This document shows, piece after piece, positions 44,356 through 53,950 of a DNA stretch of 64,000 bases. Location of the stretch: positions 99,264-163,263 of the IMG/VR virus record IMGVR_UViG_3300032234_000392. One strand, 5' to 3'. A program made the position numbers and the translations under genes. The notes beneath the pieces are model-generated. The model searched no databases. It was given only the letters and a program-made list of their open reading frames with translations, and was not told the DNA's origin. Origin of the DNA: a virus (lineage: Duplodnaviria > Caudoviricetes). The first letter of the stretch is position 1. The number at the start of each line of letters is the position of its first letter.

Positions 44356-44661
44356 TTATTTGAAGAATATCAGTGCCATCATTACTGATTGTACGATAAA
44401 TCCAAAACCAATCGTGACCACATTCAACATGTCCTTTTGAACGGCCGCTTTGATAAACAACAATGTAAGTCCTGCCCAAACTAACAATACCAAATCAACC
44501 CCTGGCAATCTGTCAGTGAGGCCAGCCATTACTGCCAATAGGCTAGGAATAGTTGATGCGTGTAAAACTACTACTGCTAGCCAACCAAATGTTTCAGATG
44601 AGATTGCTGTAAATTTGGTTGTGACAAATGTCTTAAAAGTTTGAATATTAAAGTTTAGCAT
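44356..44661 (-). CDS. small multi-TM membrane protein
   Basis: hydrophobic helices; start probably MLNFN. Confidence 0.65.
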   Translation of the reverse strand: MLNFNIQTFKTFVTTKFTAISSETFGWLAVVVLHASTIPSLLAVMAGLTDRLPGVDLVLLVWAGLTLLFIKAAVQKDMLNVVTIGFGFIVQSVMMALIFFK

Positions 44662-45217
44662 AGTTGTTGCCTTTCGATTTTGGTTTGTAGAAAATGTGTT
44701 GTCCAATTTGTCCTATCTTTTGTAAAGGCCATTGGGGATTTACATAGTTGGCATGATAGTAGAGGGCTTCTTTAAGCACACTCAATTCAAAACCTTCTAG
44801 TAAAACTTTTTTGGCAACCTCATAACTTTCATTATAGGCTGCTTTGTTAATAGGTCTATTTTTGTGTACAGAGTCACATGCCCATGAGAATTGACATACA
44901 ACTCTTTCCATAACAACATTCTTTTGATAGACCACACCACAGACGTCTTTACCGAAACGTCCATCTTTAACACGATTCATAGTGACCTGTGCTACTGCTA
45001 CTTTACCTTCGAATGGCTCATGGCCTGCTTCGCGATAGATATTGATTGCTAGGCAATCTAATTGTTGTTCGCGAACTTTGATCGAAACAACATCGGGTGA
45101 ATAATACCCGCTTTTTTCTTTTAGAGTTGAAAACTTAGTAGCGGTAATAGTTTGCACCAAAACAGCCACGGCTAAAAATCCCACAAGGTAGGATACTAAT
45201 TTAATTGACTTTTCCAT
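44648..45217 (-). CDS. cell wall hydrolase (SleB / Hydrolase_2)
   Basis: CLAINIYREAGHE, VAQVTMNRV, CQFSW, YYHANYVNP, IGQHIFY. Confidence 0.9.
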   Translation of the reverse strand: MEKSIKLVSYLVGFLAVAVLVQTITATKFSTLKEKSGYYSPDVVSIKVREQQLDCLAINIYREAGHEPFEGKVAVAQVTMNRVKDGRFGKDVCGVVYQKNVVMERVVCQFSWACDSVHKNRPINKAAYNESYEVAKKVLLEGFELSVLKEALYYHANYVNPQWPLQKIGQIGQHIFYKPKSKGNNYAKL

Positions 45218-45234
45218 AAGTCCTCCTTTCATTT

Positions 45235-45465
45235 GGTGTAGTTAAAAAACACTACATTACATTAAGGGAGTAACTTCACGAGGCTCAAAAAAGAACCCTG
45301 ACATACGTGTAGTTGTCTCCATTGGACGCATGATCTCATAACTCATGTGCCTTTGGAGCCTTGACCGCCCGAATCTCACGGGTTTCTCATTGGCCAAGAC
45401 TCGCGGATTTGAACTGTACTGCATCGCTCCGTTCAAACCTACTATCTTGTTTCTTTGCGAAACGT
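45235..45465 (-). ncRNA. candidate structured RNA/leader upstream of the cell wall hydrolase
   Basis: helices GTTTGAAC/GTTCAAAT, CTTGGCC/GGTCAAG, CCCG/CGGG, CATGA/TCATG, GGGTTC/GAGCCT. Confidence 0.5.
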
Positions 45466-45510
45466 ATATTATATAGTTCATATACAGTATTATACACTCT
45501 AAATTGGCGA

Positions 45511-45897
45511 TTATCGACGCATTTTGGAGATCTCAACAGCTTCTTCGTCCGAAAAGATAGGAACCGCATTTGATTTGTGCATAGTACCAATACCTTTGAT
45601 TTTGTCTCCGGTATAGACTTTGTCTGGTGCTTTTACACAAGGACCACCAGTAAATGGCAGACTAGCAATGTGTGGAGTTTCTCTACGATAAGGTTCTGAT
45701 TTTGGCTTCCATGTATCGGCAGCAAGTCCACGCTTACGCTTACGTTCTTCTGCTTCAATTCCCCATCTTTTTTGCAGGTCTTTCCAAGATTCTTCCAAAA
45801 ACTCCGCCTTTCTTTTTGCTTCGGCACTGGCCCATTTTTTCTTGCCTTTCTTTTTGCCTGTGGTACTGAGCCACGGGCCTTCCAAATGCATAGTCAA
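45511..45897 (-). CDS. conserved hypothetical phage protein
   Basis: YTG..IKGIGTMHKSNAVP motif; TTGACT-N17-TATAAT promoter at 45928-45956. Confidence 0.75.
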   Translation of the reverse strand: MTMHLEGPWLSTTGKKKGKKKWASAEAKRKAEFLEESWKDLQKRWGIEAEERKRKRGLAADTWKPKSEPYRRETPHIASLPFTGGPCVKAPDKVYTGDKIKGIGTMHKSNAVPIFSDEEAVEISKMRR

Positions 45898-45957
45898 AAT
45901 AAACTCCTAAGTGTTAATACAAATACTATTATACACTCTACAGAGATTAAAGTCAAG

Positions 45958-45980
45958 AAAAAGCCCACCGAAGCGGGCTA
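45958..45980 (-). terminator. intrinsic terminator after pqqA
   Basis: AGCCCGC-TTCG-GTGGGC-TTTTT. Confidence 0.75.
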
Positions 45981-46024
45981 ATCTTAATAACAGTCTCCTG
46001 TTTCCAAAAGACGTCTCATTATAC

Positions 46025-46096
46025 TTACTTGTTCATCACATACATTGTGACTTCGAAGCCAAAACGCATTTCTGTTGCTGCTGGTGTTGTCCACAT
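46025..46096 (-). CDS. pqqA: coenzyme PQQ precursor peptide (MWTTPAATEMRFGFEVTMYVMNK)
   Basis: W-x-x-P...R-x-G-F-E-V-T-x-Y PqqA signature with E-x3-Y; AAGGAGG RBS; own terminator. Confidence 0.93.
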   Translation of the reverse strand: MWTTPAATEMRFGFEVTMYVMNK

Positions 46097-46205
46097 AGTA
46101 GTCCTCCTTGTTAATAAAGATTAAGTACCGGTGTTGCCTTAGTACTTAGTATTATTATACTGAAGATCTACCATGTTTCACATACTGAAAATCATTAAAA
46201 TGATA

Positions 46206-46712
46206 TCACCCATTTAACACTTTAGCAACACTATTCATGACGCTGGCAATACGTCCAATATCACGAAGATTCTCTACTGTGTAGCCTTCTTGTTTCAATG
46301 TGTCATAGTGTGCCTTAACACAGAAGTGACACTTGCCAACAATACTTGCAGCCAAACTAAATGCTTCGAAGTTTGCCTTAGTAGTTCCGCCGTGTGATGC
46401 AATAGCATTCATTCGAAGCTGTGCTGGTAATCCTTTTAGTGCAGGATCTTCAGCCATCTCAACAAATGGATACCACACATTGTTCTGTGCCATAATGCTT
46501 GCGGCTGTCATTGCAGAATCTGCGTGAACTGGTGCGTCTGCCAACATTACCGATAATACTTTGCCGTTGCCTGTGGCAGCCAGTGCGGCCACAGCACAAC
46601 CCATGGCCACATCTGCATCCAAGGTGCTACGCAAAAGAACAGCGTCAAGATTTAACTTGGTGTCCTTGGCGTAGTCTGGCAACGCTTCTTTAATAGCGTC
46701 AATGAATGCCAT
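46206..46712 (-). CDS. ahpD: alkyl hydroperoxide reductase AhpD
   Basis: LPDYAKDTKLNL, MAQNNVWY, KCHFCVKAH. Confidence 0.9.
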   Translation of the reverse strand: MAFIDAIKEALPDYAKDTKLNLDAVLLRSTLDADVAMGCAVAALAATGNGKVLSVMLADAPVHADSAMTAASIMAQNNVWYPFVEMAEDPALKGLPAQLRMNAIASHGGTTKANFEAFSLAASIVGKCHFCVKAHYDTLKQEGYTVENLRDIGRIASVMNSVAKVLNG

Positions 46713-47251
46713 TATAGTGTTTCTCCGCCTACTGTACGGTTACATGCACATAACTCGCCAGTTTGTAGAGCGTCTAATACACGCAAAGTTTCTTCTGGGC
46801 TACGACCAACGTTCAAGTTGTTGACTGTGACATGTTGAATTTCATTGTTTGGATCAACAATAAATGTAGCACGAAGTGCGGCACCTGCTGGAGCATAGAA
46901 CACACCAAGCTGTTCAATCAAACTTAACTCACCACGCTGTGTGTCAGCAAATTGTGTGTGAGTAATTTTCTTTAGATCAGCATGGGCATTTTGCCAGCTA
47001 ACTTTACAAAACTCGTTGTCTGTGCTACCTGTGAGCAATACAGCATCACGATCAGCAAAGTCATTGGCTAGTTTATCGTAGGCTACAATTTCTGTAGGGC
47101 ATACAAATGTAAAGTCTTTTGGATAGTAAACAATTACTTTCCACTTGCCTTCGAATGACTTTTCTGTAATGTCAAAGAATGCATCTTCTGGTTGTCCAGG
47201 CTTAACACCTGTAATTGTAAATGGGGCCAATTTATCGCCAACTGTTTTCAT
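46712..47251 (-). CDS. ahpC: peroxiredoxin AhpC
   Basis: YPKDFTFVCPTEI, LRATFIVDP, VGRS, LCAC. Confidence 0.95.
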   Translation of the reverse strand: MKTVGDKLAPFTITGVKPGQPEDAFFDITEKSFEGKWKVIVYYPKDFTFVCPTEIVAYDKLANDFADRDAVLLTGSTDNEFCKVSWQNAHADLKKITHTQFADTQRGELSLIEQLGVFYAPAGAALRATFIVDPNNEIQHVTVNNLNVGRSPEETLRVLDALQTGELCACNRTVGGETL

Positions 47252-47403
47252 AAAATCTCCTTGTGTGTGTTTGAAAACTTCTCTCAGCGTTTTCACTGAG
47301 TATGTGTATATTATATATCCTAAAGAAACCTATTGTCAAGCAATTTTAATAGGTTTTTTCTATTGTATTTTTTAATATCGAATATTAAAAAAATCTATAT
47401 GAT

Positions 47404-47890: not shown

Positions 47891-48094
47891 TTAAGCTGGC
47901 TGAATATTACTAGCCTGTGCGCCTTTCATGCCTTGAGTTACTTCAAACCTTACACTCTGTCCTTCTTGTAAGCTCTTGAAGCCACTCGAATTAATCTGTG
48001 AAAAGTGTGCGAATAAATCTGCGCCACCGTCGTCTGGAGTAATAAAACCAAAACCTTTGGCGTCATTAAACCACTTTACTTTACCTGTTACCAT
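47891..48094 (-). CDS. cspA: cold-shock protein
   Basis: [23 protein letters not shown]. Confidence 0.95.
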
Positions 48095-48406: not shown

Positions 48407-48810
48407 CCAATCCTCTTGTTGTTATCTACTCTATGTTGCCATTCTTCAACACTTCCAGGAAAGCGCCATGCCCATACAGCTACTATGGCCATAAAGACTG
48501 CAGTACTTAATATGCCTATTGGCTTTACTCCTGTAAACCACATGATGATCAAACTTGAAGTCATCATGGCCAGCATGAAGTATTTCATCTTAGTTGGGAA
48601 CACACGTTTCTGCCCCCAGTTGGTTAAGAACGGACCAAACAATTTGTGATTATAAATCCAACGATGCATGCGTTCACTGCCCTTGCTAAAACAATAAGCA
48701 GCAAATACCACAAAGATTGAGTAAGGCATACCCGGAGTAATCACTCCTACATAGGCCAATCCTAAACTAATGAATCCAGCGGTATTCCAAAATAGTTTTT
48801 TAATGTTCAT
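48394..48810 (-). CDS. YbaN/DUF454 family membrane protein
   Basis: GVITPGMP..F..AAYCFSKGSERMHRWI..H..FGP. Confidence 0.8.
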   Translation of the reverse strand: MNIKKLFWNTAGFISLGLAYVGVITPGMPYSIFVVFAAYCFSKGSERMHRWIYNHKLFGPFLTNWGQKRVFPTKMKYFMLAMMTSSLIIMWFTGVKPIGILSTAVFMAIVAVWAWRFPGSVEEWQHRVDNNKRIGWLK

Positions 48811-49805
48811 GCTGCTACTACCCTATTAGGTACTGCACTGACAATAATGTCAGAGTGCAAATTTGGTGTAAACTTTCCTCCAGCAGCACCATTTAGTGTT
48901 GCTAATTTATTCTGTGGTTTATTTTGTCTTATACTAGTGCCGCCATAAGGCAATCCCGGTGCAGCAAAACTTAGATGTATCCACACAGTCTTGCCTGGTA
49001 GATATTCTAACAACAATTGATCGTAGGGAATATTTTTACTGATCCACACAGCAATGTCAAAGTAGTCGTGTGCGCCTACTCCTCTAAACTGCAGATCCAT
49101 AGCTTGTCCAGTACCGTGTTGACTTTTAGGATCGTTATGTCTAAAACTATTAGTTACAGTCACATTTGGATATTTGGCCTTGATCGGTTCATAGACATTT
49201 AATGCCAATGCCGCTAGATTGTTAACTACTGCCTGTGGTCCACTAACTGAAGGTGCACATTGTGATAGTTGAGCTATAGTTCTAGGAAAGGTGACATTTT
49301 TAATCATAGTTCCTAGAGTAGTGCCATTAGGAGTTAGTACTGTGGCAAAACTAATATCTCCTGTGACTGCAGCAGATTCGCGAGCTGCTGGAGGCGCTAC
49401 AGGCGCTACTCCTTGAGTCTTTGGAGTTGGAGTAGTCGTCAGTTCTGTGTGTTCTTGTTTGGTGATACGACCTTCTGCTAAGAACTTATCAGCTTCTACT
49501 TTTCCTGCAGTGTTGTCGTCATCACCCTCAACGTTTTGAACAGCCTGTACCACAGTAACTCGAGGAACTGTGACTGCTGAAAATGATCCTTCTGTACTGG
49601 CTGCATTGTATAGTGCAATTATCTGCCCGTTGGCAAAAACGTTAGCAGCATCATAAACCGGTTCAACCCTACCGTTGGTACCAAACCTAAGCCCTGTGAT
49701 TGCAGTAAACGGATGTGTATGCGATACTGGAATTCTAGCCGAAGGCCCGTCAGCAGGTGTATTAGCTGGCGCCGAGCTTGGGTTGATTGTTGGGGTAGTT
49801 GCCAT
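48807..49805 (-). CDS. peptidase M15-type (Zn) protein, probably virion/lysis associated
   Basis: NSFR..SQHGTGQAMD, DQLLLEY, WIHLS. Confidence 0.8.
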   Translation of the reverse strand: MATTPTINPSSAPANTPADGPSARIPVSHTHPFTAITGLRFGTNGRVEPVYDAANVFANGQIIALYNAASTEGSFSAVTVPRVTVVQAVQNVEGDDDNTAGKVEADKFLAEGRITKQEHTELTTTPTPKTQGVAPVAPPAARESAAVTGDISFATVLTPNGTTLGTMIKNVTFPRTIAQLSQCAPSVSGPQAVVNNLAALALNVYEPIKAKYPNVTVTNSFRHNDPKSQHGTGQAMDLQFRGVGAHDYFDIAVWISKNIPYDQLLLEYLPGKTVWIHLSFAAPGLPYGGTSIRQNKPQNKLATLNGAAGGKFTPNLHSDIIVSAVPNRVVAA

Positions 49806-51628: not shown

Positions 51629-53950
51629 TTAAAGTTTACAACTTTCGCAATCGGCTTCTTCATCAAAGTCAATTGGAGCTAGTCCCATCGGTGGCGTTTC
51701 TTCTGCTGCTGCCTTACTACCTGCTTTGTTAATCAAACTGTAGTAGAATGTTTTCAATCCCCATACATGTGCCTGCATCAAATTACGAGCAATTAATGTA
51801 GTCGGCACTTTACGATCTGCAAAGTGTGCAGGATTGTAGAATGTATTGGTACTAATACTCTGATCAACATAGGCCGCTAACACAGCCGCAGTCTTTAGGT
51901 AGCCATCACAGTCTTTCTGTTCCCACATCAGTTGATACTTGTTTTTTAATCTATTGTATTCAGGAGCAACTTGTGTAAACGATCCTGCTTTAGATTCTTT
52001 AGTAGTAATCAGACTCATTGGCATTTCAATGCCGTTAGTCGAGTTAATAACAACACTACTAGACTCCACTGGAGCAATAGCCATTAGGGTAGCATTACGA
52101 ACTCCGTACTGCTTCATTTGTTCGCGGAGAGGTTCCCAGTCAAGTTCGGGGGCAAAGTCGGCGAGTTGGTTGACTCCTGCGGCTCTTCTTTCCCAGGGGA
52201 AGATACCCTGACCATATCGAGTTTTATGGGAGTCCACGCAGGGTCCTCTTTCTCGGGCCAGTTCGACTGTGGCTTCTGTGAGGTAGAATGCCTGATGCTC
52301 CATCCATGATTTAACTTCTGCCAATGCGTCTTTGTCGCCATATTTTAAGCTCCTTTTAGCATGCCAATAGGCAAGGTTAGTAATACCAATACCAAGAGGC
52401 TGTATCTCATCATTTGAAAGTTTACTTTGAATTGATAAAAAGTCTTGATAGTCTAGGATATTACATAAACTGCGTTGTAATATGCGACAGGCTCTACGCA
52501 TGTCTTCTGGGTTTCGGAACGCACCCCAGTTGATGGATCCCAGTGTGCATAACGCTATGCGTCCCTCCTCGTCGTCTAATCTCTTAAATGGACGGGTTGG
52601 CAATAAGATCTCACAGCACAAGTTACTTTGATAGATAGTATGGTACTCAGGATCAAAAGGACCCTGATTCATAACATTATCAATAAACACCAAATAGATG
52701 CGACCTGTATCTGTACGCTCCTTAAGAATGCCGCTTTTAAATACTTCTTCAGCACTCATTGTTTTCTTGCGTAAGTCTTTACGCTTTTCATACTTTACAT
52801 ATAATTCTTCAAACTTTTCTACATTACTGTAAAATGCTTCATATAGTTCTGGCACTTCATTAGGATCGAAGAATGTAATATCTTCTTTGTTCTTAAAGCG
52901 TCTCCAGAAGAATGCCGAAAGGACAACACCGTAGTCCATGTGACGAACACGGGTTTCTTCTGTGCCTTGATTGTTTTTAAGAACAATAAGGTCGTCAAAC
53001 TGATGATGCCAAATAGGATAGAATACTGTGGCACTGGCATTGCGGATACCGCCCTGCGAGCATGAACGTAGATCACCAAACCATTTTTTTAGGAATGGTA
53101 TCATACCTGTGTGCATGATTTCGCCACCTCTAATGGGACTACCTAATGGGCGTAAACGACCAATCTCTAAACCAATGCCAGCACGTTTGCTGGCATACTT
53201 GGCCATCATCTCACCAGAAGCAAATATGCTATCCAGATCGTCGTCACTGCGGATAAGCACACAACTAGAAAACTGCTTAGTTGGAGTGCCAAGACCAGCC
53301 AACACAGGTGTAGCAAGAGTAAACAAACCATCGGATGCCGCGTTATAGTATTCTTTAATATAACGCATTCTTGCACTATTCGGTTCTTCTTTATGGAACA
53401 CAGTCGCGGCTGCAACCATGTATCTAATTTGTGGAGTTTCATAAGTTTCCTTAGTGGCACGATTGCGAACAAGATACTTTTCAATTAACTGTTCAATGGC
53501 TGCGTAAGAATATTCTTCGTCTTTAGCATGCTCTAGCATGTCGTTCATCTTGTTCCAGTCATCTTCAGTGTACCACTCAAGTAATTCTGGTGTATACAGT
53601 CCAACCGATACGTTCTTTTTTATAATATCATATAGGTGAGGAACATCATATGATCCATAAACATCTTTACGCAACATTGACAGTCGTTGCTTACCTGCTA
53701 CATATTGATAATTGGTATGACCTACATCTGGATTATGTTCAACATCGATAAGATCAACTATAGCACGTAGCGTAATGCCATCAATATCTTCAGTGGTGAT
53801 TCCATCATAAAAATGTAGTTGAGCTTTAATTTCTATCATCGACTGACTAACGTCAGCAATACCTTTACATACTTTTGCTACTTGGGCTTGCCACTTTTCG
53901 ATCATTAGCGGTTCTTTCTGCCCATTCCTTTTAATTACTGTTATGCTCAT
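51629..53950 (-). CDS. nrdA: ribonucleotide reductase class Ia alpha subunit
   Basis: ATP cone, QFSSC, SNLCCEI, CTLGS, C-terminal CESC; no intein or intron seen. Confidence 0.97.
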   Translation of the reverse strand: MSITVIKRNGQKEPLMIEKWQAQVAKVCKGIADVSQSMIEIKAQLHFYDGITTEDIDGITLRAIVDLIDVEHNPDVGHTNYQYVAGKQRLSMLRKDVYGSYDVPHLYDIIKKNVSVGLYTPELLEWYTEDDWNKMNDMLEHAKDEEYSYAAIEQLIEKYLVRNRATKETYETPQIRYMVAAATVFHKEEPNSARMRYIKEYYNAASDGLFTLATPVLAGLGTPTKQFSSCVLIRSDDDLDSIFASGEMMAKYASKRAGIGLEIGRLRPLGSPIRGGEIMHTGMIPFLKKWFGDLRSCSQGGIRNASATVFYPIWHHQFDDLIVLKNNQGTEETRVRHMDYGVVLSAFFWRRFKNKEDITFFDPNEVPELYEAFYSNVEKFEELYVKYEKRKDLRKKTMSAEEVFKSGILKERTDTGRIYLVFIDNVMNQGPFDPEYHTIYQSNLCCEILLPTRPFKRLDDEEGRIALCTLGSINWGAFRNPEDMRRACRILQRSLCNILDYQDFLSIQSKLSNDEIQPLGIGITNLAYWHAKRSLKYGDKDALAEVKSWMEHQAFYLTEATVELARERGPCVDSHKTRYGQGIFPWERRAAGVNQLADFAPELDWEPLREQMKQYGVRNATLMAIAPVESSSVVINSTNGIEMPMSLITTKESKAGSFTQVAPEYNRLKNKYQLMWEQKDCDGYLKTAAVLAAYVDQSISTNTFYNPAHFADRKVPTTLIARNLMQAHVWGLKTFYYSLINKAGSKAAAEETPPMGLAPIDFDEEADCESCKL

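Follow-up and report, generated by a model that had tools for sequence, protein, structure and literature searches.

A large lytic-type phage that probably infects Methylophilaceae carries an intact, stand-alone gene for PqqA, the PQQ precursor peptide. We put the probability at about three in four that this gene is independently transcribed and feeds host PQQ synthesis, sustaining methanol oxidation during infection. The gene lies in the window analyzed here, a stretch of 64,000 nucleotides that forms the last 64 kb of a linear 163,263-bp IMG/VR virus record with a CheckV completeness of about 46%. PQQ is the cofactor of methanol dehydrogenases, and one PqqA peptide is consumed per PQQ molecule. 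The Glu and the Tyr of PqqA, three residues apart, supply the atoms of PQQ, and the biochemistry behind the Glu/Tyr cross-linking steps is reportedly that of Barr et al. in 2016. To our knowledge, the 72-bp pqqA is among the shortest auxiliary metabolic genes known.

Gene Identity and Expression Signals

The pqqA coding sequence occupies positions 46025..46096 on the minus strand, with its ATG at 46096-46094, and comprises 23 codons and a stop codon (72 bases). Its translation is the 23-residue peptide that had been picked out in the initial annotation. Both the W..P..R.G leader and the Glu-x3-Tyr cross-link motif are present, the latter as Glu15-Val-Thr-Met-Tyr19. When the profile search proposed in that annotation was run, the peptide matched TIGR02107 over the full length of the model and above the curated cut-off (38.8 bits against 20, E 5.6e-10), and PF08042 likewise (40.3 bits against 21.1, E 3e-10, model full-length). 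PqqA scored 36.4 bits in a six-frame search across the whole genome. Judged by these scores, the match is not a product of chance.

The gene is surrounded by its own predicted signals. A Shine-Dalgarno site, AAGGAGG, is found at 46103..46109 on the minus strand, 6 bases 5' of the ATG, and a sigma-70-like promoter candidate (GTGAAA-16-TATAAT, 10/12 consensus matches) was located by pattern match alone at 46154..46181 on the same strand. Two hairpins 3' of the stop codon were recovered by a terminator scan and by RNA folding, both on the minus strand. The first, at 45993..46012, has 8 bp and a GGAA loop and lacks a T-run; the second is an intrinsic terminator at 45954..45979, with the stem AGCCCGC/GUGGGCU, a UUCG loop and a following T-run. 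The terminator hairpin proper, at 45979-45962, has 7 bp, 5 of them GC, and was reproduced by RNA folding. The earlier description of a 23-residue PqqA reading frame with a strong ribosome-binding site and a terminator is thus borne out by the translation, by AAGGAGG and by the hairpin with its T-run. An Rfam search of the pqqA region returned no family above the gathering score.

Directly past the pqqA terminator, and ahead of the gene for a phrog_27048 member, there is a near-consensus promoter (TTGACT-17-TATAAT, 11/12) at 45928-45956 on the minus strand. Because this promoter comes just after the terminator, pqqA seems to form a self-contained cassette with a separate transcription unit on each side. 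The window pqqA is a genuine gene, predicted to be read as a monocistronic transcript from the candidate promoter.

Relation to Host pqqA Copies

The core EMRFGFEVTMY was scanned in one genome per prokaryote species and was found at no fewer than 120 loci. Nearly all of the loci listed belong to named Methylophilaceae, i.e. Methylotenera, Methylophilus, Methylobacillus, Methylovorus, Ca. Methylopumilus and the OM43 clade, and the remaining ones are labelled only at higher betaproteobacterial ranks. The exact peptide of the window is the commonest variant, accounting for 52 of the 129 copies among the matches listed; 9 copies of it lie within 1.5 kb upstream of pqqB and 26 are orphans, again among the matches listed. 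All 129 copies listed divide into 26 linked to pqqB, 68 orphans and 35 undecided. By sequence, the phage peptide cannot be told apart from the natural substrate that the host pathway uses. The Methylophilaceae-like host proposed in the initial annotation agrees with this identity to the commonest Methylophilaceae variant, and a Methylophilaceae-type pqqA should in general be a good marker of a Methylophilaceae host.

Methylotrophs had also been said to carry extra pqqA copies, and the host genomes examined hold 3-7 each. Whole-genome counts were 7 for Methylobacillus flagellatus, 5 for Methylophilaceae bacterium 11 and 4 for isolate KH-45. Ca. Methylopumilus universalis (NZ_CP040953.1, 1.3 Mb) has 3 copies, at about 416, 457 and 1186 kb, and its pqqE is at 578 kb with no pqqA copy adjoining it; in this bacterium, the genes for the precursor and the operon for the enzymes are completely separate.

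Phage Setting of the Locus

The genes around pqqA are on the minus strand as well. Immediately downstream is the phrog_27048 member (45511-45897, PHROG match), followed at 44648-45232 by a SleB-type cell-wall hydrolase (endolysin). Immediately upstream is an AhpD-family gene (46206-46712), assigned by a TIGR00777 match of 119 bits that falls under the 192-bit cut-off, and next to it an AhpC-family gene for an AhpC-type peroxiredoxin (46712-47296). Farther on are a CspA-type cold-shock protein gene (47891-48094; PF00313, 104 bits), a second endolysin-like gene (48807-49805) and the ribonucleotide reductase large subunit (51629-53950). The cold-shock gene shows 70-80% nucleotide similarity to csp genes of unrelated phage records. 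Tail-spike-like and virion proteins were identified by PHROG matches at greater distance from pqqA.

The peptide's identity to host copies, together with the origin of the record in a metagenome assembly, raises the prospect of an assembly chimera, with pqqA-bearing host DNA fused to phage DNA at the gene. Such an artifact is extremely unlikely. Phage families flank pqqA on either side, and GC content is even (0.37-0.44) from 38 to 54 kb with no break at the gene. In addition, three diverged IMG/VR contigs from other metagenomes have pqqA at the same place with identical junctions, with flanking proteins of about 40-90% identity (tblastx/tblastn). Synteny extends over 41042-47282 in L124 (from a 96-kb contig), where it takes in ahpC, ahpD and pqqA; over 42504-46207 in L015; and over 45134-46112 and 47452-50300 in L112 (from a 61-kb contig), which lacks ahpC and ahpD. 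Neither ahpC/ahpD nor the phage neighbors were found beside host orphan copies. A host-phage chimera, which had been named in advance as one of the results that would undo the annotation, is for practical purposes excluded at pqqA by the synteny in these three relatives and the even GC. The window pqqA sits inside a bona fide phage genome.

Capture of ahpC-ahpD-pqqA as one host block was considered and rejected, given that ahpC/ahpD are missing from the orphan pqqA loci of hosts. A search of five Methylophilaceae genomes recovered no AhpD, and AhpC at only about 35% identity; AhpD and AhpC, unlike pqqA, are therefore not recent host copies. The identity of L124 to the window proteins is 68% for AhpD and 85% for AhpC. 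The ahpD-ahpC pair may constitute a second auxiliary module, one that detoxifies peroxide. A SleB-type endolysin gene also lies within about 1 kb of pqqA in L012, L038, L056, L057, L087, L104 and other loci. These loci belong outside the window's own group, and placement near lysis genes, as seen in the window, recurs among them.

Stand-Alone Status of the Gene

When the 163,263-bp record, about 46% of the genome, was searched in full in all six frames, nothing came near the cut-offs of the PqqB, PqqC, PqqD and PqqE models, nor near that of the PQQ-dependent alcohol dehydrogenase model in the same 163 kb. The absence of pqqB-E noted earlier for the window accordingly holds for the window and for the entire record. 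Two weak PqqE matches were rejected as generic radical-SAM proteins, and a third radical-SAM reading frame, next to one of these, encodes a twitch-domain protein (NF033640, 335 bits); none of the three is PqqE, and all score far below the PqqE cut-off. The three radical-SAM genes are located before the window, at about 77.7-90.3 kb of the record (G000:C1; L002, L003), in the vicinity of sugar-nucleotide genes, and adjoin a gene resembling NAD-dependent sugar epimerases/dehydratases. They may function in the modification of sugars or bases. Linkage to pqqBCDE was not found in the 163 kb. It is not a strict requirement of the PqqA family, since orphans make up at least 68 of the host copies and the copies of Ca. 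Methylopumilus universalis all lie far from pqqE.

The pqqB-E genes or a PQQ enzyme could be encoded in the remaining half of the genome, and the peptide might then serve a phage enzyme of this kind; it might also titrate PqqD/PqqE or act as a regulator or signal. Such a non-boosting role gains some appeal from the completeness of this contig (about 46%) and from the PqqA-bearing Lake Baikal viruses, which also have methanol dehydrogenase (PMC7678222). Nevertheless, it is quite unlikely. The peptide has the same sequence as true substrates of the host and should consequently be processed rather than inhibit; there is no PQQ-dependent dehydrogenase in 163 kb; and complete small phage genomes are without an annotated PQQ enzyme in the regions read.

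Distribution Among Phages

A tblastn search with the peptide against 50,697 phage records matched 12 records. Nine are cultured-phage carriers: P19250A (100% identity), MEP301, Venkman, MEP401, MEP402 and four Melnitz records. A tenth true phage match is the Manatee Spring podovirus, for which no host is recorded. The two remaining matches, labelled "Acinetobacter phage MD-2021a", were rejected as viral, being pieces of bacterial chromosome that include the full pqqBCDE operon. The gene content of one of them, L010 (CAKLQF020000010.1), with fur, ppk and all of pqqBCDE, resembles that of a bacterial chromosome, and matches to it are not to be counted as viral. The count of nine refers to the cultured records that the search reached, with HIM624-A, RSA-MFP1, MEP431-434 and MG-MTP1 outside it; MEP431-434 and MG-MTP1, among others, gave no match and are possibly absent from the collection searched. 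Universality of pqqA among methylotroph phages is not established.

The nine cultured Methylophilales/Methylophilaceae records come from at least four phage types unrelated to one another, the Melnitz phages being T4-like myophages. Every copy examined in these records and in the Manatee Spring podovirus is intact, with 23-24 codons, and pqqA is unannotated in every cultured-phage record examined because gene callers miss it or place a gene on the wrong strand. It falls in an annotation gap in P19250A, Venkman, MEP301 and MEP402, and a wrong-strand "hypothetical protein" overlays the intact gene in Melnitz-1 (L006; MZ577095.1, 2461-2569) and in L007 (MW202481.1, 2067-2195).

A motif scan of IMG/VR, which is not a census, found pqqA in at least 120 contigs, with the Methylophilaceae-type core in about 100 contigs among the matches listed; a second, narrower scan likewise found at least 120 contigs. 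A scan of IMG/VR for the Pseudomonas/Acinetobacter-type pqqA core yielded no viral contig, and the pattern was validated by its recovery of pqqA from the Acinetobacter locus. The PqqB-E proteins of the Acinetobacter operon, used as tblastn queries, detected no pqq enzyme in the flanks of the viral loci listed. Grouping the viral loci among the matches listed by the flanking proteins that they have in common gave about 19 groups. The largest has 65 loci, including P19250A, Venkman, MEP301 and the Manatee phage, and the window's own group and the Melnitz group have 4 loci each. In representatives of the other groups that were checked, pqqA is only a few kb away from portal, terminase, DNA polymerase or tail genes.

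This distribution slightly favors the view that Methylophilaceae phages acquired pqqA convergently and that the gene is a near-universal hallmark of these phages, among them podo-, sipho-, Zobellviridae-, T4-like and giant phages of both freshwater and marine origin.

Selection on the Viral Copies

Codons fixed by the search pattern bias any estimate of conservation, and dN/dS was therefore recomputed on the 13 free codons alone. For the distinct viral copies among the matches listed, dN was 0.19 and dS 1.03 on these codons, a ratio of about 0.18. Entropy at codon positions 1/2/3 was 0.28/0.24/0.86 in the 101 distinct viral coding sequences listed, and the unaligned flanks of viral copies are far more variable than the coding sequence. 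The DNA of copies encoding the same peptide differs from the window pqqA by 6-17%, mostly at synonymous positions in comparison with host copies, and exact matches to host copies extend over 26 nt at most; selection therefore acts on the peptide and not on the DNA/RNA sequence as such. Signals are retained outside the coding sequence as well. A Shine-Dalgarno-like 4-mer precedes pqqA in 101/101 distinct viral copies among the matches listed, and a terminator-like hairpin follows it in 51% of viral and 90% of host copies, compared with 4-5% of random windows from the same loci (matches listed). By these measures, viral pqqA is under purifying selection and has been maintained across phages.

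The same measures bear on two alternative origins. The gene might be a neutral passenger, a scrap of host DNA gained by illegitimate recombination and of no benefit to the phage. It is tiny, multi-copy in hosts and equipped with its own flanking signals, which would make capture easy, and its position varies between phage lineages. This origin is nonetheless quite unlikely: all 119 reading frames from the first IMG/VR scan are intact with 23-25 codons (matches listed), as are the cultured copies, and frameshifted or start-less copies were not found in the present sample. The Shine-Dalgarno-like motif is never missing from the 101 distinct copies listed, dS is about 1 and near saturation against a dN/dS of about 0.18, and the gene has kept its position even where relatives have diverged to only about 40-90% identity in the flanking proteins (translated matches).

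The gene might alternatively be a recombination or integration handle, i.e. a patch of homology to the host (attP-like or an exchange target) in which the peptide is irrelevant. In small phages pqqA adjoins ERF/YqaJ-type recombination genes, and each host would offer 3-7 target copies. This possibility is very unlikely, since conservation tracks codon structure, DNA encoding the same peptide is only 83-94% identical, and exact runs with host copies reach 26 nt at most. A complete reading frame with a ribosome-binding site is always kept, and pqqA is also present in the T4-like Melnitz phages and in this large phage, with no integration genes seen nearby. An attP-like role was rejected on the codon-structured divergence.

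Proposed Role and Significance

The passenger, the handle, the non-boosting role and the chimera each fit the data less well than does an auxiliary metabolic gene. As such a gene, pqqA would be expressed by the phage from its own candidate promoter, and host PqqD would bind the 23-residue phage peptide. Host PqqE would then cross-link Glu15 and Tyr19, and host PqqB and PqqC with peptidases would finish PQQ, which would pass to the periplasmic XoxF/MxaF methanol dehydrogenases and so to the energy supply of the cell. Since one PqqA is used per PQQ and hosts keep 3-7 copies, a phage copy would keep precursor flowing as host transcription falls. PqqA supply can be argued to matter because the peptide is destroyed with each cofactor made and even streamlined hosts hold several copies. 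A benefit of one phage copy on top of the 3-7 host copies is assumed here.

The case for the auxiliary metabolic gene is built from the identity and intactness of pqqA, its expression signals, its phage setting, the host-identical peptide, purifying selection and recurrence. From the last three of these, the recurrence being in unrelated phages, we infer that phage pqqA sustains PQQ supply. Translation during infection, processing by host enzymes and a gain in PQQ or burst size would presumably follow.

Methylophilaceae, including the OM43, LD28 and Methylotenera groups, are major methanol consumers in oceans and lakes. If the phages of Methylophilaceae routinely top up the precursor, PqqA supply would limit the energy of infected cells, and infection would shape C1 carbon flux. 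If pqqA is indeed a near-universal hallmark, PqqA supply would be the first methylotrophic energy step to fail in an infected cell, and the gene would be a simple way to link uncultured phages to methylotroph hosts by sequence. A Methylophilaceae-type pqqA would in any case offer a cheap means of host prediction for uncultured phages. Auxiliary-gene surveys undercount such peptides because standard annotation does not see a gene of 72 bases. Cultured host-phage pairs with pqqA-bearing phages exist (OM43 H5P1 with Venkman or Melnitz, and IMCC19250 with P19250A), so the idea is directly testable.

Comparison with Known Systems

The novelty of a viral pqqA implied by the initial annotation was overstated, as PqqA of methylotroph phages was published in 2020. 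PqqA and a viral methanol dehydrogenase were described in methylotroph viruses of Lake Baikal, and viral PqqA was proposed as an auxiliary metabolic gene aiding methanol oxidation (Coutinho et al., 2020, Microbiome; PMC7678222). In that study PqqA is given only for the representative sequence of viral population VP_266 (PMC7678222). In a reservoir study of 2026, viral pqqA is counted with the viral genes related to phosphorus. Phage pqqA is absent from the papers describing Venkman, MEP301, Melnitz and MEP401/402, in which PQQ figures only as a medium supplement, and a description of its spread over cultured phages and at least 120 contigs was not found in the literature searched. What appears new here, within that literature, is the unannotated pqqA in nine cultured records of at least four phage types and as a stand-alone cassette in at least 120 viral contigs, almost all viral copies being of Methylophilaceae type.

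The closest relatives of the window gene are bacterial PqqA (TIGR02107/PF08042) and specifically the orphan copies of Methylophilaceae, with which it shares length, leader and Glu-x3-Tyr core, at 100% identity to the commonest variant. The phage gene is predicted to be monocistronic with a hairpin terminator, as are 90% of the host copies listed. It differs in being phage-borne, with phage genes on both sides and no pqqB-E in cis. Lake Baikal VP_266 resembles the window phage as a freshwater phage with a predicted methylotroph host and a PqqA precursor peptide; VP_266 encodes a methanol dehydrogenase, however, whereas none is found in the 163 kb of the window phage.

A broader parallel is cyanophage psbA, with which pqqA would share the logic that the phage replaces the fastest-consumed part of the host energy machinery. 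The psbA gene encodes the D1 protein of photosystem II, is nearly identical to host copies, is widespread in unrelated cyanophages and depends on host partners. The two differ in that psbA encodes a 360-residue membrane protein with demonstrated expression during infection, whereas pqqA encodes a 23-residue peptide that is consumed and whose expression is here predicted.
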